Assembly: GCA_965223265.1 (NCBI GenBank)
Contig: OZ244999.1
Span: forward strand, 3,968,001-4,032,000
Source of the DNA: Planctomycetota bacterium
Lineage (GTDB): Bacteria; Planctomycetota; UBA8108; SXIK01
Length of the DNA stretch: 64,000 nt
Direction of reading: 5' to 3'
The notes beneath the pieces were generated by a model. That model did not search any database and was not told where the DNA came from. It worked only from the letters and a program-made list of their open reading frames with translations. Positions within the stretch are counted from its first letter, which is position 1, and each line of letters begins with the position of its first letter. The translations under genes were made by a program, and so were the position numbers. Positions 3,843 to 17,542 of this stretch are shown piece after piece.

Positions 3843-5258
3843 GTGGCTGAGCTAGAAGTGTCTGTGGCGGGGATTCCGGACAGGTCGCGTCCTAAGGAGA
3901 CGCCGTTGTTCAAACCGCGCGTACCATTTGAAGGCGGACGGGCAATACGGCTCTGTCTTTGTGCCCTGGTGTCGCTCGTCGCGTTCTCGGTAGCCGCTCC
4001 TTCCACGAGCGCCGAGCCGCCCACAGTTGGCGCACCGTCTTCGAGCGTCGGGCCAGCGCTCCTCCTCGGGGACGTTCACGCGGCCAACCGCGGCGGCGTC
4101 GACGCCGGCTCAATCGTCGAGATCCCGATCTACGGATTGCATCTGACAGGGCTCGACGGAGCGCTGTTGACCGTTGACTATGACGAGTTATTCCTGTCCG
4201 CGTCGGGTGTCGAAGCGTCGCCTGGTTGGGTGATCCACGACGTAGACTTGAGTTCCCCGAACAGTATCGTGGTGGACTTAAGAGCGACGTCACCGCTAAC
4301 CGGCGAGTCCACGGACGCGGCCACCGAGACGGTCTTGGCGCACCTTCAGTTCGTGACGCGAGAGATTCCGCAAGAGCTGCGCGAGGAGCAACGGGTTCGG
4401 GTCCCCATCAGGATCCGGCATGATCAACAAGCCCGCTCCTCCGTCTATCGACTCGTCGGCGGTGACGATGTCGAATCGGTTCTCACGGAGCGCGCCGACG
4501 GGCAGCTCATCCTCCACCTTGCGGACCACGTCGAACTCGGCTCGGCGCTTGTCAGTCCGACGGCTCAAACGTTCGAGCTACCGCTTCACGTGACGGCGCT
4601 CAACTCGCCGGACGTCGAGTGGATGCTACTGACGGTCGACTACGACGAGCTGTTCCTCACCGCTCTCGACCTCGACGACGTGCAGCCAGAAATCACAACC
4701 ACCGAAAATGTCCACACCGGCGAGGTGCACACGCGCGCCCACTACCGAATCCCCTTCGATGCAACGGAATCGCTACTGAATTCGCCGCTACTGGCGCTGC
4801 CGCTGCGCTACCACGGGGGCGCGGCGGAAGGATCAACCCTGTCGATGCGCGTCGAGGCAGTCTTTGGCACGGCGGATAGCGACGGCAATGACCAGACGGT
4901 CAGTGTCACGCAAAGCTACGCCTCCTCCGTGACGATAAGCTCTCCCGCGTTCATGCGCGGTAATGCGAACGCTAGCAACGAAGATCAGCCTCTTGACCTT
5001 GCGGACGCAACGTCGATCCTGCTCTTCGTATTCGGCGGACTCGATGATCTCGCGTGCCGAGCGGCCGCGGACTTCAACAGCGACGACTCGGTCGACGTCA
5101 GCGACGGCATTGCCTTGCTCAACTTCCTGTTCATGGCCGGCGCGCCTCCCGAGGCGCCTTACGAACGTCCAGGCTGGCTGAACACCGCCGGTGCCGACCA
5201 GGAACTAGGCTGCGACCAATCGCTACCGCTGTTTGAGGCGAACGCGCCGCCGGAGTAG
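3843..5258 (+). CDS. Secreted protein with two cohesin-like repeats and a C-terminal planctomycete-type dockerin-like domain
   Basis: Hydrophobic signal peptide (LCLCALVSLVAFSVAA); internal repeat LLTVDYDELFL x2; C-terminal FMRGNAN...DLADA...L.F.F...AADFNSDDSVDVSDGIALLNFLF duplicated Ca-binding motif; start uncertain. Confidence 0.75.
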   Translation: MAELEVSVAGIPDRSRPKETPLFKPRVPFEGGRAIRLCLCALVSLVAFSVAAPSTSAEPPTVGAPSSSVGPALLLGDVHAANRGGVDAGSIVEIPIYGLHLTGLDGALLTVDYDELFLSASGVEASPGWVIHDVDLSSPNSIVVDLRATSPLTGESTDAATETVLAHLQFVTREIPQELREEQRVRVPIRIRHDQQARSSVYRLVGGDDVESVLTERADGQLILHLADHVELGSALVSPTAQTFELPLHVTALNSPDVEWMLLTVDYDELFLTALDLDDVQPEITTTENVHTGEVHTRAHYRIPFDATESLLNSPLLALPLRYHGGAAEGSTLSMRVEAVFGTADSDGNDQTVSVTQSYASSVTISSPAFMRGNANASNEDQPLDLADATSILLFVFGGLDDLACRAAADFNSDDSVDVSDGIALLNFLFMAGAPPEAPYERPGWLNTAGADQELGCDQSLPLFEANAPPE

Positions 5259-5346
5259 GATCTCGCACCGCTTCGCAGCCGAGCGCGCAACACTCGCAGC
5301 GCCGAGAGCGGCGAAAAACCGCAACTCGCTGCAGTTACCCTAGCTG

Positions 5347-6090
5347 TTACCCTAAGAGTGTCTCAAGGCCATACTCGATGCGCTTGAGCTCCGGCACACG
5401 CCGGGCGGCAAGCAACACGCCGGGCATGAAGGATTCGCGGCTGATCGAGTCGTGTCGAATCGAAAGGATCTGGCCGGAACCGCCGAAGAGCACCTCCTCG
5501 TGCGCTACGAATCCGGGCAGCCGCACACTGTGAATCGGTACTCCTAGGAGGCGTCCGCCGCGCGCGCCGGCGACGGTCTCTTTCTCATCGGGATGAGCAC
5601 TCCACTCCTGCGGCGCGGCCGCGCGAATCATTTCGACCGTCTTGACGGCCGTTCCCGACGGAGCATCGAGCTTTTGGTCGTGGTGCATCTCGATCACCTC
5701 GACGGCCGGAAGGTGGCGAGCCGCCTCGGCCGCAAATCTCATCAGCAGGACAGCACCAATGGCAAAATTGGGCGCGATCAGACCGCCACGCTGTAGCGCA
5801 GCCGACTGAGATTGAAGCCGCTCGATATCACCGGGCGAGAATCCCGTCGTGCCGATGACAGGGTGGGCCCCGGCCTCCAGAATCTTCTCGACGTTCTCGA
5901 CACAGCTGTCGGGCTGGGTGAAATCGACAACGACAGTGGCGGCGTTGCCGCTCAATGCGGCGACCAGGTCGTCGCCCAGATCCGTCGTACCGACAAGTTC
6001 CATGTCGTCGGCGCCGCTGACCGCAGCGACGACATGCGTTCCCATGCGACCAGCCGCGCCGTTGACATGCACTCGGAGTTTTTGGGTCAT
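5347..6090 (-). CDS. dapB: 4-hydroxy-tetrahydrodipicolinate reductase
   Basis: GAAGRMG, VDFTQP, VIGTTG, APNFAIG, EMHHDQKLDAPSGTA, HSVRLPG. Confidence 0.97.
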   Translation of the reverse strand: MTQKLRVHVNGAAGRMGTHVVAAVSGADDMELVGTTDLGDDLVAALSGNAATVVVDFTQPDSCVENVEKILEAGAHPVIGTTGFSPGDIERLQSQSAALQRGGLIAPNFAIGAVLLMRFAAEAARHLPAVEVIEMHHDQKLDAPSGTAVKTVEMIRAAAPQEWSAHPDEKETVAGARGGRLLGVPIHSVRLPGFVAHEEVLFGGSGQILSIRHDSISRESFMPGVLLAARRVPELKRIEYGLETLLG

Positions 6091-6405
6091 GATCGTGACT
6101 CTCGGTTATCTCGAGTTTGGCCGTTTCGTGTCGAGCCTGGGATCGCCAGCGTCGAGGCCAAGGAGCGACTCGGGCGCGATCCCGCTCGGGTCGTGGCGGG
6201 GGACGGGCGCAGGCATCGGCGTTCCTGGCGTTCCCCGAAGGGCCGGACAGAAGTTTTTGAACACGCCCAAGGCGATTAGGGTAGAAAAAAGTCGAAAAGG
6301 CCTGTGAACCCCGGCAAGCTCGTCCGGCCAGGCGGCGCGACATGGCCAAGCTCGAGGTTATGTGCCGCAACTGTTGTAGCGACACTCGCCCAGCGGTACA
6401 AGGGG

Positions 6406-6461
6406 AACAGGCTGCTCAAAAGACGCTGCGAACGGAAAACGGCGTTTTTGGCGTCCGGATC
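6406..6461. mobile_element. Decayed remnant of the MITE family
   Basis: AACAGGCTGCTCAAAAGACGCTGCGAACGGAAAAC..GCGTCCGGATC aligns loosely by eye to the reverse-complement end of the 54739-54904 element. Confidence 0.4.
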
Positions 6462-6799
6462 CCCGGCACGAAGTCACGAGAAATCGCCACGCCTGACGGC
6501 CATTCTGAGTACAGAGTTGTCGTCTCGTCGTCTCGTCGTCGAGCAGCCGGTTTCTCGCTGGAGAGTCGCTCTGTAGAACAGACGGAACAAAAAGGGCTCC
6601 GACGACGGACAGGAGACACCCTGCCTCAACACTCACCGCAACGACCGCCAGTCCTTTGTGGATAAGATGCCGCCGAAGCCCTATCTCGTTGTCCGCCCAC
6701 GCGCACACGGTATCGTCACCACCGAAAGCCGCCGTGGGCGAAGAATCGCTCGCCCACCTCCTCCGAATTGCGCCAGGCTCTTCCACCGGTGTGCAAACG

Positions 6800-7003
6800 C
6801 ACGAAGACTGATCTTCTCGCCGACGCACGGCGTCCGACGAGAAGATCAGCTCAAGCCGGATTCGGTCTTCACCTACTCGCTATCGATGGTCAGTAGACAT
6901 CACCTCCTTCCTTGCTGTGAGAACGCGGTGTTTGTTCGCCGGAGATGTCACGTCGACCACGCCGCACAGCGTTCGACGGCGAATCGAGCCCGATTCGCCC
7001 CGC
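6800..7003 (-). ncRNA. Candidate sigma54-dependent small RNA / micro-ORF transcript
   Basis: Starts ~12 nt after a -24/-12 motif; 5' hairpin GGCGAATCG/CGATTCGCC (6978-6999); core CACAGCAAGGAAGGAGGTGATG; 6-codon ORF MSTDHR (6900-6880); 12-bp terminator-like stem at 6808-6849. Confidence 0.6.
6808..6849 (-). terminator. Terminator-like hairpin ending the candidate sRNA
   Basis: CTGATCTTCTCG...CGAGAAGATCAG perfect 12-bp stem plus inner stem, followed by UCUUCGU on the minus strand. Confidence 0.6.
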
Positions 7004-7013
7004 GGTTGGATAC

Positions 7014-7030
7014 AGCAAACGGAGGACCAA
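7014..7030 (-). promoter_or_regulatory. sigma54 (-24/-12) promoter
   Basis: TTGGTCCTCCGTTTGCT, i.e. TGG-N10-GC with TTGCT, matching TGGCACN5TTGCW spacing; upstream palindrome TGCGA-N7-TCGCA (7136-7152) is a candidate enhancer. Confidence 0.65.
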
Positions 7031-7315
7031 GGGGCGACAATTACGACGTTCCACGACAAAGCTCCTATGTTTTGCCTCGTTCTGGCGCCTACGCCCCGCG
7101 CGAGACTCTCCCCTGCACTCAAGTGTCCGCTCCGATGCGAACAGTTGTCGCAAAAGTGATTCACGCTCGCGCGCCTCGCCGTCATATCCCTCGGCGCTTT
7201 CACGACAAAGCGTCCAAGCGGCGACACGTCGAAAGGAGCACGAGACACGAAGAACTTCTTTCTCTGCGCGCCGGTGTGCTTTCAAGACGTCGAGGCGACT
7301 GCTAAAATCTCCCGC

Positions 7316-8227
7316 ATGGAACGAAAGCTCGAGAGTCTCAAGAGCCTGATCGAAATCGTCGAACGTCTGCGCGGCCCTGGTGGTTGCCCCTGGGACCAGA
7401 AGCAGACGCTACGGGACATGGGTCGCTACTTGATGGAGGAAGTCGGCGAAGTCGGCGACGCGCTCCACGAAGATGGCGGGCAGCCGTCGCGCCATCTCTG
7501 CGAAGAACTCGGCGACGTTCTGATGAATCTCTTTCTCGCCGCGAGGATCGCTGAAGAGGCTGACGGGTTTTCGCTTGTCGAGGTAGCCGACACGATCAGC
7601 GAAAAGCTAGTGCGGCGACACCCGCACGTCTTCGGTGACGCTCAGGTGGAAAGCGTCGACGAAGTACTGGCGAATTGGGAGCGCATCAAGGCCACCGAGA
7701 CGCAGCACCACAGCGAGTCGTCGCCACGGCCGTCAACGTTGGACGGCGTACCGCGCAGCCTGCCGCCGCTGACTCGAAGCTACGAGCTGGGAAAGAAAGC
7801 GGCGAAGGTTGGGTTCGACTGGGCGAACGCCCAAGGTGCACTCGACAAAGTTCGGGAGGAAACCGAGGAGGTCAGAGCGATCCTGGGCGAGACCCAGGAG
7901 ACGCCATCGGACGAACTCGTGTCGGAACTTGGCGATTTGCTCTTCGCCGTTGTCAATCTTTGCCGCAAGTCGCACGTTCACCCGGACGACGCCTTGCGTA
8001 GTACGATGACAAAGTTCGAACGTCGGTTTCGGGCGGTCGAGTCTCGCTTTTCGGACATGAGTGGCGAACCGCTCGAACGCTTGGAGTCCGCGTGGCAGCA
8101 GGTGAAACGAGGCGAACGGCAAGGCGACGGGATTGCGTGCGGCGCCCCGCGGCAGAATTCGGCTAAGCAGAGACCATCCTCGAAACGCTCAAGCCCAACT
8201 TCCCCCGAAGTCGAAGAGGAGTCATGA
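7316..8227 (+). CDS. mazG: Nucleoside triphosphate pyrophosphohydrolase MazG
   Basis: LRGPGGCPWDQKQT, EELGDVL, KLVRRHPHVFG, KAAKVGFDW, ELGDLLFAVVN; ATG 7316 lies 7 nt after TGcTAAAAT (likely leaderless). Confidence 0.95.
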   Translation: MERKLESLKSLIEIVERLRGPGGCPWDQKQTLRDMGRYLMEEVGEVGDALHEDGGQPSRHLCEELGDVLMNLFLAARIAEEADGFSLVEVADTISEKLVRRHPHVFGDAQVESVDEVLANWERIKATETQHHSESSPRPSTLDGVPRSLPPLTRSYELGKKAAKVGFDWANAQGALDKVREETEEVRAILGETQETPSDELVSELGDLLFAVVNLCRKSHVHPDDALRSTMTKFERRFRAVESRFSDMSGEPLERLESAWQQVKRGERQGDGIACGAPRQNSAKQRPSSKRSSPTSPEVEEES

Positions 8228-9300
8228 GTACGAACGGCCATAGCGAGACCAGTCCCCCACCGAGCGCTCAGGAAGTCGAAGAGATCGTCAATGCGGCCGC
8301 GGCGGTGAGAGATCTCCGTACACAGTTAGCGCGGCGTATCGTCGGCCAACAGGGTGTGGTCACCGAGGTACTCGCGGCACTTCTCAGCGAAGGCCACTGC
8401 CTGATGGTGGGAGTCCCTGGTCTTGCGAAGACGCTCCTGATCAGCTCCATCGGCGAGTTGCTCAGCCTCAAATTCAACCGCATTCAGTTCACCCCCGACC
8501 TGATGCCATCCGACGTCACGGGCTCGACAATGATCGCAGCCGACGCCACCGGTCGTCGCTCGTTCCAGTTCGTCCGAGGACCGATCTTCGCCAATCTGAT
8601 TCTCGCGGATGAAATCAACCGCACGCCGCCGAAGACACAGGCAGCGCTCATGGAGGCGATGGAAGAAAGACAGGTCTCAAGCGGGGGCGAACACATGAAG
8701 CTCGAGCGGCCCTTTTTCGTCTTGGCGACGCAGAACCCGATCGAGCAGCAGGGCACGTACCCCTTGCCTGTTTCCCAGCTTGACCGCTTTCTCTTCAATG
8801 TGACGATCGACTATCCGCACGTTGACGAAGAGTTCCACATTGTCCTCAGAACGACATCGACCTACGCCGCCGCGATCAACCGATCGTTCGCAGCTGACGA
8901 CGTGCGGAGCTGGATCCGGCTGACCCGCCGGATCGAAGTACCTCAAGAGGTGGTAGCGTACGCCTCGCAGATCACGCGAGCAACACGCCCCGACGATGAG
9001 GCGGCGCCGGCGTTCGTGCGCGAACACGTCAGATTCGGCGCAGGGCCGCGCGGCACACAGTCGCTTCTCTCTGGTGCCCGAGCCCTCGCGCTCATGGAAG
9101 GTCGGCCGATTGTCCACTTCCGTGACGTGGATGCCGTCGCCTTGCCCACCCTTCGCCACCGCCTCATCCTCAGCTACCACGCTCGTGCCGAAGGAATCGC
9201 CCCGGATGATGCGGTCCGCAGCGTGCTTGCTTCCTTAGCGACACGTTACGCAGAGATCGTCCCAGCAGCGCCGGTGGGAGCGCGCGCCGAGCGCTCCTAA
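8224..9300 (+). CDS. MoxR family AAA+ ATPase
   Basis: GVPGLAKT, RIQFTPDLMPSD, LADEINRTPPKTQAALMEAMEE, ATQNPIEQQGTYPLP..QLDRF; ATGA overlap with mazG. Confidence 0.96.
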   Translation: MSTNGHSETSPPPSAQEVEEIVNAAAAVRDLRTQLARRIVGQQGVVTEVLAALLSEGHCLMVGVPGLAKTLLISSIGELLSLKFNRIQFTPDLMPSDVTGSTMIAADATGRRSFQFVRGPIFANLILADEINRTPPKTQAALMEAMEERQVSSGGEHMKLERPFFVLATQNPIEQQGTYPLPVSQLDRFLFNVTIDYPHVDEEFHIVLRTTSTYAAAINRSFAADDVRSWIRLTRRIEVPQEVVAYASQITRATRPDDEAAPAFVREHVRFGAGPRGTQSLLSGARALALMEGRPIVHFRDVDAVALPTLRHRLILSYHARAEGIAPDDAVRSVLASLATRYAEIVPAAPVGARAERS

Positions 9301-9331
9301 CCTCGAGTTTGACGGCTGCTAAGACACACTG

Positions 9332-11665
9332 CTACGACTTCGTGCCGATCGTGGTCGGGTCAACCGTTTCGGTCTCCGTGCCGCTAGCAGACTCTTCGCT
9401 CGTGGCGCTCTCCGGCCGATAGCGCAGCACGAACGCAATGACATCGCGCGCACACGCCTCGCAGTAGCCGTAGTTTTCGTTCATGTTGCAAAGAGCGTGC
9501 TCGACTTGGCGTTTGTCCTGGTCCGACAGGAGTTCAAACTCGTCGGTGCCAAACTTCAGGATGTCTTCCTCGATCAACGTCAGCAGACGATTGCGCTCCT
9601 TGTAGAAATTGTCACGCAGCGCCGAATGGATCTCAGGGAACAGCGCCTGATAGTCGATCGCGTCCTTCGGATGGTCCAAAGACCACGCAGCGATGCGCGT
9701 GATGACCTGCGACCGGAACTTGTCCTTCGACTCCTTCAAATCGAGCAGTTTCTCGATCGATCCCATGAGCTCCTCATTGGGGGAGTCGTAACTATCCGTC
9801 GTCGAGTTAAAGACCTTCTCGCCAGTGTGAAAAGCCTTCACGTGACGGAAATACTCGAGGAAGACCCGGGTATACTCTTTGACGTCTATGAGTTCGATCG
9901 ACTCGTAGACCTCCTTGGTCACTGAGCCGAGATACTCTTCGCGCACGTCCTGCAAAAACTTGTGGACGTCGTGATAACCGCCGTCGGGCGGCAAACGGAG
10001 AAAGTCGTACAGGCTTGAGTCTTTCAGTAGTTCCTCTAGCGCTTCGAACACAGCCATCGGGGTCAAGCACTTGAACTTTGGACTCTCCGCCGCGCGTGAA
10101 AGAATCGTGATCATCTCACGCGGCGACGCGCCGCGGCGACCTTCGTACTCAGGTCCGACGATGCCCTCGAACTCCCCCTCCACATCCTCGTACTCCTGAC
10201 GGACATTGATCACACCGCCGCGAAGAATCTGGCGCTCACTCTCACTGAGCCGTGTGGGCGCTTCCCCAGAGTCATATAGCCGCGCTTTTTCAAACGGTGT
10301 GAGGGAGGCCACGATTTGGCCCAAAGGACCGTCGTACCGTTCCGAATTGGGCCGACAAAGCCTCGTAAGCACCGCCCACATCGCAGCGACTTCAGCGGTG
10401 TGGGGAGTGACGTGGCGCTCACGTGCGCAGAGTTGGATCTGACGCTCGTAGAGACGCTGCTCGGCGCTGTACCTCAGCAGATAGGGTACGGCCACAAGTT
10501 CGATGCGAGCTTTGAAGCTTGAAAAGTCGGGGCTTCGTTTGAACAGATTGAGTTGTTTCTCGTTCGACGTACCGACGATGACGAGATCCAGGTAGGCGAT
10601 ACAGTTCGGAAGGCTCACGGTGCCGCGTTCGCACGTCGTCAGCAAATACTTGTTGGCCTCCATCGGCCGCTTCAGAAAATCGCTGTACTCCAGAATACCG
10701 CGATTGGCATCGACGATATCGCCGAGCGGTTCGTAGAGGCTGATGTTCTTCAGAAGCCCGGGGATACTCCATGCGTTGTCGCCCTGAATGGAGCGGACGT
10801 TGGCGTCAACATTTCCTTGAGGTTCGATGCTCGCGGCGCCTTGCCGGTATCGCTTGGAGATGAAGAATCGCTCGACCTGGACGTGGCGCACAACCTTGCG
10901 CCAATCGCCTTGATACGCCATCAAAAGCGCGTCGTAGATTCGTCGGCACTTCTGACAGAGCTCGTTTTCGAGATAGTGGTCATAATTGTATTTGGGCTTG
11001 AACTCGGGAGCGCAGCCGTCGACTGCACTGCGGATCAGGTCAGCGCGAATCGCCGTCGGGATGAGAAAAATCGGTGAATCGCAAAGTTCACACGGAATCT
11101 TCGAGCTAACGTCCTTCTCGTCGAGATGGGCGTACGACTGAGCACCCTCGAGGTCGTCGTCGAGCCCGGTCTGCGCCTCGAACCCTATGCGTCCGAGACG
11201 GTTCTCGCGCTCGGTGAAAACCCATGCAAATTTAACGAGAGCACCAGCTTCGCTCTTCGAATACTCCTCGAGTCCGCGAATGAGGCATTCGACGACCGTC
11301 GTCTTCCCCGATCCGTTCGGGCCACGCAGGAGCAGCATTTTGCCTGCCTTGCCGCGCTTCGCCGCCGCCAACAGGTTCCGATAGATCTCCTGCTGGACAC
11401 GCTCCTGCCCCACCAGCTCGATATCGGAACCCGTAGTGGCGTCGAAAACGCGGTAGCGCACGGCCTCCTGGCCAACGCGCTGTGCGTCACGAGTACCGAA
11501 CGACTCCATCATGTCCAGGAGATACTGCGGCGACGTGCGCAAGTACAGCCCGGGCGCACGCATGAAATCCTCGAGAAACTCCGCGAACGACCGCACGCGG
11601 TCAGCGCTCTGGAAGCGCCCACTCACCTGCTCATGAATCTCATCGATGAGCTGATCGACATTCAT
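9332..11665 (-). CDS. prkA: PrkA/YeaG family serine protein kinase (AAA-type)
   Basis: LLRGPNGSGKTT, ANRGILEYSDFLKRP, RIELVAVPYLL, EGRRGASPRE, YGYCEACA; start trimmed to ATG 11665. Confidence 0.88.
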   Translation of the reverse strand: MNVDQLIDEIHEQVSGRFQSADRVRSFAEFLEDFMRAPGLYLRTSPQYLLDMMESFGTRDAQRVGQEAVRYRVFDATTGSDIELVGQERVQQEIYRNLLAAAKRGKAGKMLLLRGPNGSGKTTVVECLIRGLEEYSKSEAGALVKFAWVFTERENRLGRIGFEAQTGLDDDLEGAQSYAHLDEKDVSSKIPCELCDSPIFLIPTAIRADLIRSAVDGCAPEFKPKYNYDHYLENELCQKCRRIYDALLMAYQGDWRKVVRHVQVERFFISKRYRQGAASIEPQGNVDANVRSIQGDNAWSIPGLLKNISLYEPLGDIVDANRGILEYSDFLKRPMEANKYLLTTCERGTVSLPNCIAYLDLVIVGTSNEKQLNLFKRSPDFSSFKARIELVAVPYLLRYSAEQRLYERQIQLCARERHVTPHTAEVAAMWAVLTRLCRPNSERYDGPLGQIVASLTPFEKARLYDSGEAPTRLSESERQILRGGVINVRQEYEDVEGEFEGIVGPEYEGRRGASPREMITILSRAAESPKFKCLTPMAVFEALEELLKDSSLYDFLRLPPDGGYHDVHKFLQDVREEYLGSVTKEVYESIELIDVKEYTRVFLEYFRHVKAFHTGEKVFNSTTDSYDSPNEELMGSIEKLLDLKESKDKFRSQVITRIAAWSLDHPKDAIDYQALFPEIHSALRDNFYKERNRLLTLIEEDILKFGTDEFELLSDQDKRQVEHALCNMNENYGYCEACARDVIAFVLRYRPESATSEESASGTETETVDPTTIGTKS

Positions 11666-11758
11666 AAGATCACTTCGAACTGGTTGGGCTCGGACGACGG
11701 GACGCGGGCAACGGTACGACTCGGAGTGTCTTCGGAACGCAGCGCGCACGAGTCAATG

Positions 11759-11810
11759 CCGAAATCATCGTCCGAAATCATCGTCCGAAATCACGCTCCG
11801 AAACTTCAGC
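11759..11810. repeat. 13-bp periodic repeat CCGAAATCATCGT (2 perfect plus 2 degenerate)
   Basis: Read directly upstream of prkA; the same word recurs at 42428-42442. Confidence 0.85.
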
Positions 11811-12052
11811 GACCGGCGATGCGTCCGTCGCTCCCCTCACCGCCAGACGAGCGGACAGGCTCTCTTCATTCTTCATCTTCGTCAATTCATCTTACTGCCC
11901 ACAACAGCTCATGCGTGAAAAACGGTTCCCAAAAACACGCAGGCTCTCACACTGGCCTCCAACGTGACTAAGTCTCCTCTCGGCGCGCCCCAGCAGGACG
12001 TCGCCAGCGTCATCGGCGGTGCATGAATCGAAGCGCCGCCCAACGCCGCCGG

Positions 12053-13954
12053 TCAAGACTCCGACCCCTCTTCCTTGGCGTAAATTCGGAGCTTTTGGTA
12101 GAGGGTCTCGCGCGAAATTCCAAGAATCGTCGCAGCCTTCGCCTTGTTGCCGTCCACCTCGTCGAGGACGCGTCGAATGTACTGCTTCTCGACTTCTGCG
12201 ATCGTCTTGAGGCGGAAGATCATCTTGCCCCGTCCCTTCTTGCGGACGTGCGGCGGCAGGTCGGAGGGCGTGATCCTTTTGCCATCGCCAAGCACGATCG
12301 CCTGCTCCAAAACGTTCCGAAGCTCACGGACGTTGCCAGGCCAATGATAGGTTCGTAGACATTCCTTAGCTGCCTTTGTGAGGGTGATCGCCTGCGGCCC
12401 TTCGCCGAGAAAATGGCCGGCAATTTCGATGACGTCGTCACCCCGCTCACGAAGTGGTGGCACCTCAATCGTCACCACGGCAAGACGGAAAAAGAGGTCT
12501 TCTCGGAACGAGCCATCTTCGATCGAACGCTGAAGGTCACGGTTCGTTGCCGAGACGACTCGAATGTCGACGGACACTTCGTTTTGGCCGCCAACACGGT
12601 AGAAACACCTCTCTTGCAGGGCGCGGAGAATCTTCACCTGCATGTCCAGCGGCATGTCGCCTATTTCATCGAGAAACAGCGTGCCACCACTCGCCATGTC
12701 GAACTTCCCGACGGCCGACTGCACTGCCCCCGTAAACGCACCCTTCTCGTGACCGAAGAGTTCACTCTCGACGAGATGGTGGGGAATCGCGGCACAGTTC
12801 ACGGCGACGAACGGTTGATCCTTCCGCGCCGAACGGTTGTGGATGGCACGCGCGACGAGCTCTTTGCCGGTGCCATTCTCGCCGGTAATCAATACCGATG
12901 CATCACGCGGCGCGACCTTCTCGACGAGCTCCAGTACGCCTCGCATCCGCTCACCCGAACCGATCAGCTCCTGGCGTCCACCGACGAGGCTCCTGAGTTG
13001 CTCGTTCTCACGTCTGAGACGAAAACTGTTGGCGAGGCTCTCGAGGCTGACGCCACCAATTCGCCCGACAGCACTGACGAACTCAAGGTCGCCACGGTCA
13101 AGCTGTGGGCCACGAATGCCGCGCGTGTCGACGTAGATCAAGCCGAGGACCCGATCCAGTCGTGCGATGGGGACGCAGACGAATGACCGGATGTTGAGGT
13201 CGATCACACTGGCGCCGAAGTCGTTGTGATCGGGTACGTCACGAACGAGGACGGCGTGTCGCTCCCGTTGAATGTGGCGCAGGATACTCTCGCTCATCTC
13301 GAGCGTCGTCGCTTCCTTTCCCTGCTCGGGGTCCCAGAATCGAATCACATTCAACGACTCTGGGTCAAAACCCTCGCTCGCGAGCGTCGCCACAAACCCG
13401 CGCTCGGCGCCCGTCCCGTCCATGGCCGTCGCCAAAAGGGCGTCATACACGTCTTCTGCGTCCGCAGCGCTGAGGAGGCTCTCGGAGAGCGAATAGAGAC
13501 CTGACAGTCGGTCGTAATACCTCTCAGCCGCCTCGAGGTTGCGAAAGTCTGGCTTCTCAACCCTAACAGTGGCAGCCTCGAGACTGATCGCCCCGGTATC
13601 AGAGTCGAAACTCGGCGACTCGCCTGGCACAACGCGCACAGCCGCCGTCTCGGCGACGTCGTTTTCGAACACCATCTCGGTCTGACCAATCGAGATGTGG
13701 TCGCCAAAGGTCAGCGTCTTTCCTCCCCTGACCTCCTCGCCGTTGATGCGGATGGGGTTTTTTCCGCCGACATCGCGAATCGTTGCGATCTTGCCGTCGG
13801 TCTCAATCAACGCGTGGTGACGGGATACCAGCGAATCGTGCAGCACGATGGCATTGTCAACGCTGCGCCCGATGCCTAGCTGCCCTTTAGCGAGGGGATA
13901 GACACCGGCGCTGGAGCCGCTGCCCTTGCTGGTGAGAATCCGAATTCTTGGCAT
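12053..13954 (-). CDS. FHA-GAF-AAA+-Fis sigma54-dependent transcriptional activator
   Basis: N-terminal FHA (IGRS..N...VSRHHA), GAF (IRSFVCVPI...GLIYVD), [37 protein letters not shown]-terminal [21 protein letters not shown]. Confidence 0.95.
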
Positions 13955-14120
13955 AACAGCCCGCCTGAAAAAGTCATTCGGCCGAGAAACTGGCCTCTTC
14001 ACGCCCAGCTCGACCGACGTCAATACTCGATAATCCCGAAGATTGCCTGCGTTTGCCGCGGCCGATCTGGAAGCGAAGCGACCAGTTTTCGACTCGAAGC
14101 ACTATTTCAACAGGCTGATA
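13954..14120. mobile_element. MITE-like palindromic element, copy 1
   Basis: TAACAGCCCGCCTGAAAAAGT...ACTATTTCAACAGGCTGATA; closely similar to 54739-54904; left end overlaps the activator ATG. Confidence 0.85.
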
Positions 14121-14448
14121 AACGTTCGAGTCCACTGGTGTCCCGAGAGTCAGGCATCTGTTTCACGAGACGCGGACGGGACAGCGACAACGATCGCCGC
14201 GGTGGCGACAAATCGCCAGGTCGTACGAATTCATCACGGCTGGAGTTGAGACCAGGGCCCCAGCGGAGATCCGCATCCCCCACTGGCGTATTATTTTACA
14301 ACCGCACGTCGGGAAGTCAAAAGGCTCTGCGGCGGGACTTCCTCGAGGGCGCGTGTTAGGCTCTCTTAGGCGCTTCGCCCGCCCTGATTCTTGCGGCAGG
14401 CGACCGGCCGCCGGTCGTCCCGACTTTCTCAGCCCAGCCGGAGGACGC

Positions 14449-15795
14449 ATGACGCCCGCTACGCTCGAGCAGCTCCCAGCCCCTCACTCTGTTCACAAGC
14501 TGATTCGTCAACACATGATCGGCGACGGCTTCCCGATCGTTTTCGACCTCGAGCGCTCGCACGGAGCATGGATCGTCGACGGCGAGACCGGCGACGAGTT
14601 CCTCGATTTCTACAGTTTCTTTGCGAGTCTGCCGCTCGGGTTTCATCACGAAGCATTCTACGCGCCAAAGAACCGTGAACGTCTCTTCGCAGCGGCGCTC
14701 CACAAGACGGCAAATTCAGACGCGCACAGCGCTGAGCTGGCCGCGTTCTTGGACTGCTTCGCACGCGAAGCGATGCCCACTCCCATGCGGCACCTCTTCT
14801 TCATCGAAGGCGGGGCTCTGGCAGTGGAAAACGCGCTCAAAACTGCGTTCGACTGGAAGGTTCGCCGCAATCTCGCAGCCGGCCGAGGCGAGCTCGGTCG
14901 CCAGATCGCCCACTTCCGTCAGGCTTTTCACGGCCGCAGCGGGTACACACTCTCGCTGACCAACACGGACCCCGTGAAAACGCAGCACTTTCCTAAATTC
15001 GATTGGCCGCGAATTCATAACCCGCATCTAAAGTTTCCGATCGACGCCGCGGAAGTCGAGCGCGTTTCGGCCGACGAGGATCGCGCCGTAGCCGAGCTGC
15101 GAGAGGCGTTTTCGACCCATCGCCACGACATCGCAGCGATCATCATCGAACCGATTCAGGGTGAAGGCGGCGACCACCACTTTCGAGCCGAGTTCTTCGC
15201 CAAGCTGCGTCAGATCGCGGACGAGGAGGAGGCGCTTCTCATCTTTGACGAAGTCCAAAGCGGCTTCGGCATCACCGGCCAGTTCTGGGCTTACCAGCAC
15301 TTTGGTGTCACGCCCGACATCCTCTGTTTTGGAAAGAAGAGCCAGGTTTGCGGCATTATGGCCGGCCCACGCGTTGACGAGGTTCCCGACAATGTCTTCG
15401 CGGTCTCGTCGCGGATCAACTCGACGTGGGGCGGCGGCCTCGTCGATATGGTGCGATGTCAGATCATCCTCGACGTCATGCGCCGTGAGCGATCGGTCGA
15501 GAACGCGGCGACAGTCGGCGACGAACTCGTCGCGGGTCTCCGCGACCTGGAGGCGGAGTTCGCGGAGCTGGTGAGCAACAGTCGCGGCCGTGGTCTCTTT
15601 TGCGCCTTCGACCTACCCGACAGCGAGACGCGCGCCAAATTTCTTGCGGAGACGACCAAACAACGATTGCTGATCCTTCCTTGCGGCGTTTCGGCGGTGC
15701 GCGTGCGCCCGCCGCTGACTTTGACGAGCGAGGAGGCCGTGATAGGACTCCAGCGCATTCGCACGGCACTGGAGACGGTCGCCGCCACTCAATGA
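14449..15795 (+). CDS. lat: L-lysine 6-transaminase (class III aminotransferase)
   Basis: FDLERSHGAW, FFIEGGALAVENALKTAFDWK, FHGRSGYTLSLTNT, EPIQGEGGD, FDEVQSG, FGKKSQVCG, SSRINSTWGG; GGAGG SD. Confidence 0.93.
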   Translation: MTPATLEQLPAPHSVHKLIRQHMIGDGFPIVFDLERSHGAWIVDGETGDEFLDFYSFFASLPLGFHHEAFYAPKNRERLFAAALHKTANSDAHSAELAAFLDCFAREAMPTPMRHLFFIEGGALAVENALKTAFDWKVRRNLAAGRGELGRQIAHFRQAFHGRSGYTLSLTNTDPVKTQHFPKFDWPRIHNPHLKFPIDAAEVERVSADEDRAVAELREAFSTHRHDIAAIIIEPIQGEGGDHHFRAEFFAKLRQIADEEEALLIFDEVQSGFGITGQFWAYQHFGVTPDILCFGKKSQVCGIMAGPRVDEVPDNVFAVSSRINSTWGGGLVDMVRCQIILDVMRRERSVENAATVGDELVAGLRDLEAEFAELVSNSRGRGLFCAFDLPDSETRAKFLAETTKQRLLILPCGVSAVRVRPPLTLTSEEAVIGLQRIRTALETVAATQ

Positions 15796-15855
15796 CTCTG
15801 CGCGCGCTGCGCCATGCGCAGCTCTTGCAGATGTCGCTTCCCGTCGCAGCAGAAT

Positions 15856-17025
15856 TCAGCTAAACGCAGACTCGCCGGTGATGTCGGCTCCCATGACGAG
15901 CGTATGGATGTCGTGCGTCCCTTCGTACGTCTTCACTGTCTCAAGATTCATCAGGTGGCGCCCCACTTGATATTCGAGCGTGATTCCATTCGCCCCGAGG
16001 ATGTCGCGGGCCTGCCGCGCGATGTCGAGCGCAACCGCGACGTTGTTCCTCTTCGCCATGGACACCATCTGATGCCGGTCGCGGCCCGACTCCTTGAGAC
16101 GGGAGAGACGATAGGCAAGCAGCTGCGCCTTCGTGATCTCCGTCAGCATGTCGACCAGTTTTGCTTGCACGAGCTGAAATGATGCGATGGGACGATCGAA
16201 CTGGATCCGCTCCTTCGCATAGTTTAACGCCTCCGTGTAACAAGCCACGGCGGCGCCGATGGCTCCCCAGGCGATCCCAGCTCGGGCCTGATTAAGGCAG
16301 GCGAGCGCCGACTTCAGTCCTTGCACGTTCGGCAGGCGGTCGGAGGCCGCAATGCGACAGTCGTCGAAATGCAGCTCCGATGTGATCGACGCGCACAGGC
16401 TCCACTTGCGTTTTTGCTGCGTCGTCGAGAATCCCGGCGCGCCTTTAGGGACCAGGAACCCAGCCACCTCGTCCTCGAGACGCGCCCACACGATCGCCAC
16501 ATCCGCGACCGAGCCGTTCGTGATCCACATCTTGTTGCCGCTGAGAACGTAGCTGTCGCCGTCGCGTTGAGCTCGCGTCTGCAAACCGGCGGGATTGGAG
16601 CCGAAGTCTGGTTCTGTCAGGCCAAAGCAGCCGATGGACTCCCCGCGCGCCATGGCTGGGAGCCAACGCTCCTTTTGCTCATCAGAGCCAAAGGCATGGA
16701 TCGCGTACATGGCGAGCGAGCCTTGGACGCTCACGAAACTTCGCAGCCCAGAGTCACCGCGCTCGAGTTCCTGCAACACGAGCCCGTACGCCACGGGTCC
16801 AAGTCCGGCACAGCCGTACCCGTCAAGCGAGGCGCCAAGAACTCCAAGCTGAGCTAAATCGGGAACGAGCTCACTGGGAAATCGCTCCTCCGCAAAACAA
16901 TCGCCAATCATCGGCAGGACCTTGTCGTCGACAAAATCACGCACCGATTGACGAATCAAGCGCTCCTCGTCAGAGAGAAGCTCATCGATCAACAAGTAGT
17001 CAGGAGGTTGAAACGGTGACGCCAC
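15856..17025 (-). CDS. gcdH: Glutaryl-CoA dehydrogenase family acyl-CoA dehydrogenase
   Basis: ELERGDSGLRSFVSVQGSL, GCFGLTEPDFGSNP, LNQARAGIAWGA, RHLMNLETVKTYEGTHDIH; GTG 17025 preceded by GAGGAG. Confidence 0.88.
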   Translation of the reverse strand: MASPFQPPDYLLIDELLSDEERLIRQSVRDFVDDKVLPMIGDCFAEERFPSELVPDLAQLGVLGASLDGYGCAGLGPVAYGLVLQELERGDSGLRSFVSVQGSLAMYAIHAFGSDEQKERWLPAMARGESIGCFGLTEPDFGSNPAGLQTRAQRDGDSYVLSGNKMWITNGSVADVAIVWARLEDEVAGFLVPKGAPGFSTTQQKRKWSLCASITSELHFDDCRIAASDRLPNVQGLKSALACLNQARAGIAWGAIGAAVACYTEALNYAKERIQFDRPIASFQLVQAKLVDMLTEITKAQLLAYRLSRLKESGRDRHQMVSMAKRNNVAVALDIARQARDILGANGITLEYQVGRHLMNLETVKTYEGTHDIHTLVMGADITGESAFS

Positions 17026-17193
17026 GCGGCTCCTCTCGGCGGCAGGGAGTAGTCGGCTGCGACAATGGGCTACGCTCGAAGACTCCGCGATCGGTCTGTG
17101 ATGTCCGGAGGTTTCCATTTCTGGCCTCCGAGCGAGCCCCCCTAACTGAGAGACTCTCAGCTCGCGGGCGGAATCGTGAGCCGTGAGAAAAAA

Positions 17194-17268
<75 letters not shown>

Positions 17269-17316
17269 ATTCTATCAAATGAGGACCGACTGCCGTCTGG
17301 TCGCTTTTCATCTTCG

Positions 17317-17389
17317 TGAGAGCTGAAGGACTCGAACCTTCGACCCACGCCTTAAAAGGGCGTTGCTCTACCGACTGAGCTAAGCTCCC
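17317..17389 (-). tRNA. tRNA-Lys(TTT)
   Basis: GGGAGCTTAGCTCAGTCGGTAGAGCAACGCCCTTTTAAGGCGTGGGTCGAAGGTTCGAGTCCTTCAGCTCTCA. Confidence 0.97.
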
Positions 17390-17404
17390 GAATCATGGTG
17401 CTAC

Positions 17405-17432
17405 ATGTTAGCTACGGCGCACGATTTGTCTA
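17405..17432 (-). promoter_or_regulatory. sigma70 promoter of the tRNA-Lys/Glu unit
   Basis: TAGACA-N16-TAACAT upstream of tRNA-Lys. Confidence 0.55.
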
Positions 17433-17542
17433 CAGAAAATCGCTGCCGCCGCTGGCTCGCCACACGCGTCGTGAAGAGGCCCCGGCCGAGCCGTCTGCAG
17501 CGTCACCGCGGACGCGTTCATACTCACGACGTTAGCGGCGGA

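Follow-up and report, generated by a model that had tools for sequence, protein, structure and literature searches.

Sigma54-dependent small RNAs have been described in several bacteria, among them Qrr1-5 of Vibrio, GlmY of the enterobacteria, CrcZ and NrsZ of Pseudomonas and Pxr of Myxococcus. Their genes have a -24/-12 promoter preceded by an activator site and encode a structured noncoding RNA that ends in a terminator, and a dedicated bEBP gene is found close by. Other small RNAs are derived from 5' UTRs or attenuators, as are the riboswitch-derived SreA and SreB of Listeria. In Bacillus thuringiensis, the STAB-SD of cry3A is a Shine-Dalgarno (SD)-like 5' mRNA stabiliser that initiates no translation itself, for which binding of 30S subunits was proposed and which lies near the mRNA 5' end and blocks RNase J1 (PMC4113751).

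Between dapB and mazG lies what appears to be an undescribed, conserved intergenic gene for a structured noncoding RNA, putatively activated by sigma54. It was found in a stretch of 64,000 nucleotides of planctomycetotal DNA, the whole of which is called the window here. The gene is read on the same strand as dapB and lies upstream of mazG, from which it diverges, and both a pattern search and a model search of the genome found it as a single copy. Its best explanation, towards which we lean with some confidence, is a stand-alone sigma54-dependent RNA that would bind 30S subunits by means of an SD mimic. In such an RNA a 5' hairpin would be followed by the SD mimic, a 3' domain and an intrinsic terminator. 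The features of the locus are the following.

7123-7143, minus strand: predicted enhancer-like site with the inverted half-sites TGTTCG (7143-7138) and CGGACAC (7129-7123)
7015-7029, minus strand: sigma54-type -24/-12 promoter, TGGTCC-N5-TTTGC, from the sequence read and a 16-locus alignment
6586-7003, minus strand: predicted noncoding transcript of 418 nt, with its start at ~7003 from promoter geometry and its end after the U-run
6978-6999, minus strand: 9-bp hairpin near the 5' end, from about +5, arms 6978-6986 and 6991-6999
6899-6909, minus strand: Shine-Dalgarno mimic AAGGAGGTGAT, an 11-nt perfect complement of the organism's own 16S rRNA 3' tail
6808-6849, minus strand: internal hairpin of 12-15 bp, arms 6808-6822 and 6835-6849, from a repeat search and a fold
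6670-6681, minus strand: 5' arm of P1, the long-range closing helix of the 3' domain, paired to 6608-6594 in both MFE and centroid folds
6586-6608, minus strand: 3' arm of P1 (6608-6594) and U-run TTTTTGTT (6593-6586), predicted intrinsic terminator
12053-14023, minus strand: candidate cognate bEBP with FHA, GAF, sigma54-interaction AAA+ and Fis-type HTH domains (Pfam)

Reading the minus strand together with a repeat search recovered in place all sequence features that an earlier note on this DNA had listed. That note had proposed a minus-strand RNA of ~200 nt. The RNA locus itself is upheld by conserved, ordered blocks; the length is not, as the predicted transcript measures ~418 nt and ends at a conserved terminator (6608-6586). 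The transcript boundaries were set by the conserved promoter, from which we infer the transcription start, and by the conserved terminal helix and U-run.

Compared with the known sigma54-dependent small RNAs, the locus has the same arrangement of a -24/-12 promoter, an upstream activator site and a structured, terminator-ended RNA, here as a prediction, with a bEBP gene close by that is here a candidate. Unlike them, it shows no relationship to them in sequence or in Rfam, is longer (orthologous RNAs of 188-418 nt in 16 genomes), has as its conserved, candidate single-stranded element an SD-like purine tract instead of an anti-SD-like or A-rich seed, and closes in a terminator stem that is a long-range helix around a whole domain. 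It also resembles sigma54 stress mRNAs of the phylum (hsp20, prepilin-like), which use this promoter type too and carry the identical extended SD (GAAAGGAGGTG) 50-170 nt downstream of it. In those messages, however, an ATG, GTG or TTG follows GGAGG at 7-12 nt and opens an ORF of at least 140 codons, whereas here there is none, and ~200-320 nt of structured RNA close in a terminator. With STAB-SD (PMC4113751) the locus shares an SD-like complement of the 16S 3' end that lies far from any start codon and is predicted, here from sequence, to be non-initiating. The mimic differs from the 5'-terminal STAB-SD in its position, 50-155 nt from the predicted start across orthologues, and in being followed by a terminator. 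TIGR00649 found no RNase J at E<=1e-5 in this genome, which is 92% complete, so that the classical rationale of STAB-SD, a block to a 5'-3' exonuclease, is not directly transferable.

Sigma54 promoters were scored against the consensus TGGCACG-N4-TTGCW, and a sigma54 start is expected ~12 nt downstream of the GC. At 7030-7014, TTGGTCCTCCGTTTGCT has the exact GG-N10-GC spacing, and the promoter agrees with the consensus at 9 of the 12 specified positions. Sites as good or better number 4097 in the genome, ~0.45 per kb, so in a single genome the match is at chance level, and the statistical significance of the locus comes from its conservation in relatives only. Eight sigma54-like sites occur between 5000 and 17500 of the window, and the one at 7029 is the only one outside an ORF. 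When 16 orthologous loci were aligned, GG and TTGC were each invariant (16/16), the T before GG was present in 13 and the T before TTGC in 14, with unconserved flanks. The element that the earlier note had proposed as a -24/-12 promoter is thus a conserved one of sigma54 type. Combining promoter and mimic in the pattern TGG-N7-TTTGC-N50-170-AAGGAGGTG gave one match in the genome, this locus, and none with the reversed control; the promoter-plus-mimic pattern likewise gave one match per genome in seven of nine sampled genomes of the order, again with a control of 0.

Upstream of the promoter, the half-sites stand at -140 (TGTTCG) and -126 (CGGACAC) from the predicted start. At least one half-site (CGRACA or TGTYCG) is present between -150 and -90 in 13 of the 16 loci, and the genome background is 1.25 per kb, or ~0.07 per 60-nt window. 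The N8 spacing of the two half-sites is, by eye, exact in G014 and has one mismatch in G003, G012 and G017. Searched genome-wide, a half-site upstream of sigma54-like sites was found for 133 of the 4097, which is noise level. A palindrome, TGCGA-N7-TCGCA (7136-7152), and a direct repeat of 11-14 bp (7049-7062 and 7198-7211, by repeat search) had earlier been put forward as enhancer-like elements; both exist, but by eye they were not seen in the upstream regions of relatives, where the neighbouring half-sites (7143-7123) are conserved instead. The genome does contain rpoN, in two copies (PF04552 matches in open frames of 496 and 487 aa), and has 41 bEBP matches, 33 of them strong. An orthologue of the FHA-GAF bEBP lies a few kb away on the mazG side in all ten relatives examined, in keeping with the earlier statement that the promoter needs an upstream-bound bEBP. 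Dependence on sigma54 and a bEBP is what we infer from this, and the FHA-GAF bEBP, 5 kb away, is probably the cognate activator. It would bind ~100-140 bp upstream, after which the sigma54 promoter would fire.

In 16 genomes from four families these blocks are found again in unchanged order, half-site, promoter, mimic and terminal helix with U-run, and the DNA flanking them is unalignable; these genomes are relatives and not independent samples. Conservation thus extends to the promoter, the mimic, the helix with its U-run and the synteny. BLASTN of the spacer against 40 relatives returned nothing but an unrelated repeat. MAFFT, applied across genera to 15 of the 16 sequences (without G006), could not align the 3' domains, and the sequence of this domain is conserved within a genus only. 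Covariance modelling was therefore restricted to genus g5, where model R1 found seven of the ten genomes and nothing else among 59, and an nhmmer profile from the same six g5 sequences as R1 likewise found genus g5 only. Some observations were made alongside: a repeat at 6108-6309 has high depth in metagenome DNA contigs; a contig of a relative links dapB and mazG with 1366 letters between them; and a MazG-based search of genome contigs yielded MazG loci of other phyla only, all of them distant.

Helix P1, the arms and boundaries of which were picked by eye ahead of testing, is present in all 16 orthologues with 9-16 pairs, its sequence changing between genera. The six P1 sequences of genus g5 are alike or identical, and nine of 14 pairs are changed on both sides within this genus, i.e. 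in a compensatory manner. Over the orthologues P1 comprises 208 pairs, of which 20 are G-U and would become A-C mismatches if read on the other strand, an argument for the strand that folding energy does not give: relative to shuffles this is low for either strand (z -2.6 and -4.1), so the strands are not told apart by it. The mean duplex energy of P1 is -23.4 kcal/mol, against -11.7 +/- 3.4 at 4800 random places, and within its own locus each real P1 ranks in the top 1% or higher. In the window, P1 is a GC-rich stem of 11-12 bp directly joined to TTTTTGTT; at least three consecutive U within 8 nt after P1 are present, by our own reading, in 12 of the 16 orthologues, with weak U-runs in G003, G012, G014 and G016. 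Helix and U-run together are predicted to be the intrinsic terminator of the RNA, with a stem that is atypical in enclosing a 3' domain of 60-135 nt. The stem at 6808-6849, previously read as terminator-like, is not the 3' end, since ~220 nt of further conserved architecture follow it. It is an internal hairpin, and in the corresponding position orthologues have a hairpin that varies and frequently contains the motif ACCGGC. Most orthologues also have a hairpin in their first 10-40 nt, of different sequence.

The best-conserved element of the transcript is the anti-SD complement, which in 15 of the 16 orthologues matches the 16S 3' tail over 9-13 contiguous nt. The 10-mer AAGGAGGTGA occurs 23 times in the 9.2 Mb genome, against ~14 expected. 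By prediction the mimic is no more accessible than the RNA elsewhere (unpaired probability 0.29 vs 0.35), and no conserved intramolecular partner was predicted for it, the partners differing in every genome. An invariant mimic with variable intramolecular partners points to an invariant partner in trans. We suggest that the mimic would pair with 30S subunits at their anti-SD tail but initiate no translation, in the manner of STAB-SD, and that this pairing would protect the RNA or a read-through message, or occupy ribosomes when the activator is on.

A strong SD could as well serve translation, and the earlier note had considered a micro-peptide or leader peptide MSTDHR, for which the window indeed offers a strong SD, an ATG (the last letters of AAGGAAGGAGGTGATG, 6900-6898) and an ORF of six codons with its stop at 6882-6880; the same promoter and SD, moreover, precede real genes elsewhere in the phylum (four hsp20, two prepilin-like). 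The ATG, however, stands only 2 nt past GGAGG, where the real genes start 7-12 nt after it, and no start codon is conserved at a usable distance. By our own reading an ATG is present in just seven of the 16 orthologues, the ORFs downstream range from 6 to >100 codons with unrelated sequences, and within genus g5 a 1-nt indel, as well as others that are not multiples of three, breaks the frame. Pfam matched none of the ORFs of the predicted transcript, and tblastx against syntenic relatives gave no protein conservation below E 1e-4, so that we regard a translated MSTDHR as hardly credible. Equally little speaks for a locus of no function, a long divergent promoter region in which the motifs arose by chance: the promoter is indeed at chance by single-genome statistics and GC-rich sequence folds well on both strands, but the same ordered blocks stand in 16 genomes without alignable flanks, P1 has compensatory changes, the pattern occurs once per genome in most of the sampled genomes of the order with a control of 0, and the divergence of the loci excludes recent mutual copying. 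Somewhat less remote, yet still very unlikely, is that the purine-rich motif is the site of an RNA-binding protein, CsrA-like or other, and the RNA a protein sponge. The motif is invariant, a second conserved G-rich stretch sits within the 3' domain, and AAGGAAGGAGG is GGA-rich, which we take to resemble CsrA sites. Against this, each RNA has one conserved motif, where CsrB and RsmZ have many, and conservation follows the complement of the 16S tail exactly, over as many as 13 nt (GAAAGGAGGTGAT), an extent not needed by a protein that binds GGA. A six-frame search of the 92%-complete genome with PF02599 (E<=0.01) found no CsrA gene, which removes the basis of the CsrA decoy that had been suggested earlier. 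Rfam 15, searched with the whole window at the gathering threshold, returned only four tRNAs; at E<=10, positions 5900-7500 gave only sub-threshold miRNA and snoRNA noise, and at E<=1 the loci of eight relatives gave nothing relevant. In these searches no lysine riboswitch (Lysine, RF00168), Pxr or CsrB/RsmZ matched at the locus, which accordingly matches no Rfam family. 6S RNA was considered as well and rejected, since a genome-wide search with RF00013 (E<=1) found nothing.

The main rival, possible in our view though unlikely, is that the RNA acts in cis, as a 5' leader or attenuator of dapB alone or of dapB together with geneX, a downstream gene for a secreted protein. The sigma54 promoter would then drive the downstream genes, the U-run of P1 would be a conditional terminator, and the mimic would stabilise the downstream message like STAB-SD or take part in ribosome-dependent antitermination. 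In all 16 loci the next gene, geneX or dapB, is indeed co-oriented and directly adjacent to the RNA; the spacers from the RNA end to geneX (31-115 nt, seven genomes) are too short for much of a promoter of its own; the weak U-runs are confined to geneX-bearing genomes (four of seven); and STAB-SD lies far upstream of the start codon in a 5' UTR (PMC4113751). The dapB side of the argument points the other way. GeneX is absent from nine of the 16 genomes, the source genome included, and there the element is fully kept with strong U-runs and dapB follows at 119-496 nt. All six g5 genomes have a conserved sigma70-like promoter, TTGCGR-N17-TATGCT, between the RNA terminator and dapB, and in the window the RNA and dapB are separated by an inserted MITE of 257 bp. 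Furthermore, an activator-dependent promoter would be unlikely to serve nothing but an essential lysine/diaminopimelate gene, neither a lysine riboswitch nor another Rfam family was matched, and the 3' domain is too variable across genera for a metabolite aptamer. Judged by this layout, the RNA would be a separate transcription unit in the genomes without geneX, and in those with geneX read-through probably lets it act as a geneX leader as well. The latter would fit the precedent of SreA and SreB, where a terminated leader can be a stable RNA and read-through expresses the next gene; unlike these, the RNA has no recognisable ligand-binding aptamer and persists without geneX in nine of the 16 genomes.

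If the RNA is confirmed, it would represent a new RNA family outside Rfam 15, none such having been found in a literature search; the part of PMC12316311 that was available mentions neither dapB and mazG nor small RNAs. It would come with a complete conserved regulatory module, made up of the enhancer site, the sigma54 promoter and the FHA-GAF activator in synteny. What such an RNA would do for the cell is a more speculative matter, and we put forward with considerable doubt that it is an activator-induced ribosome decoy competing for the 16S anti-SD tail. Long SDs are rare in this genome, to judge from the 10-mer count, and mark sigma54 stress genes such as hsp20 elsewhere in the phylum, so that a decoy would dampen translation of the sigma54 stress regulon or set its timing, or keep 30S subunits parked under stress. 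It would then be an RNA regulator that targets the anti-SD of the ribosome itself instead of single mRNAs. The locus would further allow a clean test of whether an SD mimic that lacks a start codon serves to bind ribosomes beyond the Firmicutes, and in an organism in which no RNase J was found. Moreover, it illustrates how a promoter match without any statistical value in a single genome can be validated once relatives are compared by synteny, even where their DNA does not align. For this poorly studied clade, known mainly from metagenome-assembled genomes, the locus may offer a handle on sigma54 signalling.

On a single contig of 9.18 Mb (GC 0.61), of which the window covers positions 3968001-4032000, dapB and mazG are divergent and separated by a spacer of about 1.2 kb:

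5347-6090, minus strand: dapB (Pfam)
7274/7316-8227, plus strand: mazG (Pfam)
6909-6899, minus strand: Shine-Dalgarno (SD) mimic, 11 nt complementary to the 16S rRNA tail

The elements described in the earlier note are present in this spacer, namely, on the minus strand, a GG-N10-GC element (7030-7014), a 9-bp hairpin (6978-6999), AAGGAAGGAGGTGATG plus a 6-codon ORF and a stem of 12-15 bp (6808-6849), and further a palindrome (7136-7152) and a direct repeat (7049-7062 / 7198-7211). Relative to the predicted start, the two copies of the direct repeat (14 nt, 13/14 identical, 149 bp apart) are placed near -50 and -200; the repeat was not seen in the upstream regions of relatives. The Rfam search proposed in that note was run and matched no family of Rfam 15 in the region. 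Folding energy is low on both strands; the minus strand was assigned because promoter orientation, U-runs and G-U pairs all indicate it.

With 9 of the 12 positions of the sigma54 consensus matched, the promoter is unremarkable when taken alone, 4097 sites genome-wide being as good or better (about 0.45 per kb). The genome does possess rpoN, a point the earlier note wanted confirmed, in two paralogues:

genome 7158881-7159357, plus strand: rpoN, open frame of 496 aa
genome 5073831-5074307, minus strand: rpoN, open frame of 487 aa

A BLASTN search of 40 relatives with the spacer as query returned nothing but a repeat unrelated to the finding, and the closest MazG is only 59% identical, which indicates that these genomes are distant. 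Of 10 upstream regions retrieved, 9 still have dapB and mazG divergent and syntenic (spacers 552-2010 nt). On the dapB-sense strand of these spacers, AAGGAGGTG-like motifs occur in the window and in 8 of 9 relatives, at a distance of 236-425 nt from the start of mazG. When 30 mazG loci were scanned for a sigma54-like site at most 260 nt upstream of the motif, 15 possessed one; in the sixteenth locus, that of genome G007, the promoter is a canonical one of TGGCAC type and the motif is degenerate. The -24/-12 motif, whose conservation the earlier note had made decisive, has GG and TTGC invariant in 16/16 aligned loci, with a T before GG in 13/16 and before TTGC in 14/16 and neighbouring columns unconserved. 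By family, the element was found in 4/4 genomes of f1, in all 10 f2 genomes with a mazG locus, in the one f4 genome examined, in 1/3 of f3 (none in G005; contig cut in G009) and in 0/12 of f6, one of them doubtful. Metagenome contigs of about 9.5 kb from two runs, with about 80% identity to dapB and mazG (at window 5417-5573 and 7350-7410) and 1366 letters between these matches versus 1776 in the window, come from a related organism that is present in the same samples and shares the synteny. We consider it very probable that a conserved functional sigma54-linked element resides here.

With the start placed 12 nt downstream of the -12 C, and the U-run behind a conserved closing helix taken as the end, the orthologous predicted RNAs are 188-418 nt long, and that of the window would span 7003 to 6586 instead of the approximately 200 nt suggested earlier. 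A hairpin lies near the predicted 5' end, and 3' of the SD mimic follows a variable hairpin, often with an ACCGGC motif; the 6808-6849 stem, previously taken as terminator-like, belongs to this hairpin, between the mimic and the 3' domain. The 3' domain is closed by P1, a long-range helix of 9-16 pairs, the 3' arm of which abuts the U-run. P1 changes in sequence from genus to genus (208 pairs overall, 20 of them G-U), and its duplex energy averages -23.4 kcal/mol versus -11.7 +/- 3.4 at 4800 places drawn at random from these loci; within its own locus each real value ranks among the best 1% or better, the arms having been picked by eye beforehand. In g5, a genus with several genomes, 9 of the 14 P1 pairs are changed on both sides with 100% pairing (covariance-model alignment, 7 sequences), and the covariation score was reached by 0/500 shuffles, the alignment itself being fitted to the model. 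The inner 3' domain is almost invariant inside g5 and unrecognisable in other genera; R1, the covariance model built from g5 sequences, detects 7/10 g5 genomes with one copy each, and no others among 59 genomes of the class. Just downstream of the predicted terminator, the minus strand carries a short tandem GACGACGAGAC-like repeat (window 6520-6545).

The 6-codon ORF had been put forward as a possible micro-peptide gene, a reading we rejected. An ATG follows the motif in only 7/16 orthologues (by reading), and it does so 2 nt past GGAGG, whereas genuine genes of the same phylum start 7-12 nt after it; a 1-nt indel breaks the frame within g5, none of the ORFs of the region has a Pfam match, and tblastx of the window spacer against syntenic spacers gave nothing below E 1e-4.

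The RNA could alternatively act purely as a cis leader of downstream genes. The next same-strand gene is geneX in 7 genomes (start 31-115 nt past the RNA, with dapB beyond it) and dapB in 9 (119-496 nt). The geneX product, of about 245-280 aa, is a secreted protein whose middle part is rich in lysine and alanine; it has a signal peptide and belongs to no Pfam family:

L045:3110-3871, minus strand: geneX
L046:875-1723, plus strand: geneX
L047:3024-3812, minus strand: geneX
L052:837-1568, plus strand: geneX

The short spacers to geneX, together with weak U-runs in 4/7 geneX genomes, speak for transcription of geneX by read-through, and the RNA was probably ancestrally a leader of geneX. Against a present role as leader only, tblastn finds no geneX in this genome, and 8 others lack it as well, yet these genomes have kept the promoter, the mimic, the domain and strong U-runs. 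Moreover, in 6/6 g5 genomes a TTGCGR-N17-TATGCT element is conserved, its own spacer having diverged, from which we deduce that dapB has its own sigma70-type promoter there, and in the window a MITE is inserted before dapB:

G004, G006, G008, G010, G011 and G019, in the 119-139 nt between RNA end and dapB: TTGCGR-N17-TATGCT element
window 6104-6360, between RNA terminator and dapB: MITE-like repeat (about 257 bp; terminal inverted repeats)

A BLAST search of the genome with the MITE yields 67 hits, of which 48 span at least 230 nt at 71-100% identity; it also shows high depth among metagenome contigs. As the element survives geneX loss, dapB has its own promoter in g5 and the MITE is inserted before dapB, we favour, with some reserve, an RNA that is here a product of its own, and regard the pure cis leader as rather unlikely.

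At -150 to -90, 13/16 loci contain at least one half-site CGRACA or TGTYCG (background 1.25 per kb). In the window these half-sites overlap the palindrome that the earlier note had placed at enhancer-like distance, but the palindrome itself is not what is conserved. Beyond mazG follow, in this order, a moxR-like AAA+ gene, (prkA) and a convergent bEBP, an enhancer-binding activator as needed by sigma54, with FHA, GAF, sigma54-interaction and Fis-HTH domains:

7143-7138 and 7129-7123, minus strand: half-sites TGTTCG and CGGACAC
8224-9300: MoxR-like AAA+ gene
9332-11749, minus strand: PrkA serine kinase
12053-14023, minus strand: FHA-GAF-sigma54 bEBP
14353-15795: class-III aminotransferase, divergent from the bEBP

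Relatives examined have the bEBP and MoxR in 10/10 and PrkA in 6/10 cases, and of the 8 sites reaching 9/12 in window 5000-17500 only the one at 7029 lies outside any ORF, making this bEBP the natural candidate activator. Its action on this promoter stays a putative link, as 33 bEBP genes of this genome match strongly (PF00158, above 120 bits, among 41 matches). Several of the 41 sit in open frames of 1600-2079 aa. With an FHA domain beside a serine kinase, the activator may be under phospho-dependent control.

The 16S rRNA of this genome ends in ...GGATCACCTCCTTTCT, and in 15/16 RNAs the conserved motif is an unbroken complement of 9-13 nt to this tail. The mimic is invariant, while the segments predicted to pair with it inside the RNA are different in each genome; since a partner helix within the RNA would covary, an invariant 10-13-mer suggests that its partner is likewise invariant and lies in trans. 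The 16S tail fits base for base and is proposed as that partner. Predicted accessibility of the mimic is ordinary (0.29 vs 0.35). The closest precedent for such a start-less mimic is STAB-SD, an SD-like element which, according to PMC4113751, stabilises the mRNA of cry3A and is proposed to bind a 30S subunit while initiating no translation. RNase J was not found in this genome, which is 92% complete, so protection would here have to be directed against other nucleases, or the purpose differs. Neither was csrA found, which renders the earlier suggestion of a CsrA decoy unlikely.

In other parts of the phylum, 52/401 genomes matched the pattern TGG-N7-TTTGC-N50-170-AAGGAGGTG, versus 12 for the reversed control (own count of table rows). 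Of the 30 loci looked at, 11 carry, 5-15 nt past GGAGG, the start of an ORF of 100 codons or more; six of these were scanned with Pfam and assigned as follows:

L189:1591-2043; L193:1595-2023; L196:114-548; L197:1583-2017: Hsp20
L178; L180: prepilin-type N-methyl proteins, behind the same type of promoter and SD

Hsp20 genes of these other families have a canonical TGGCACG-N3-TTTGC promoter with GAAAGGAGGTG about 50 nt later, and a very strong SD appears to be a mark of sigma54-dependent genes in them. The RNA described here has the same promoter type and SD as these stress mRNAs but no coding part, which allows a bolder reading, improbable in our estimation, in which it would compete with them for ribosomes.

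The full statement, a sigma54-dependent stand-alone RNA with an SD mimic, we hold to be somewhat better than an even proposition. No such RNA surfaced in the literature searched, passages of PMC12316311 included. It would be a new RNA family of a known sort, that of activator-dependent, terminator-ended bacterial regulatory RNAs, with two unusual traits: a perfect SD mimic without a start, and an entire domain enclosed by the terminator stem.
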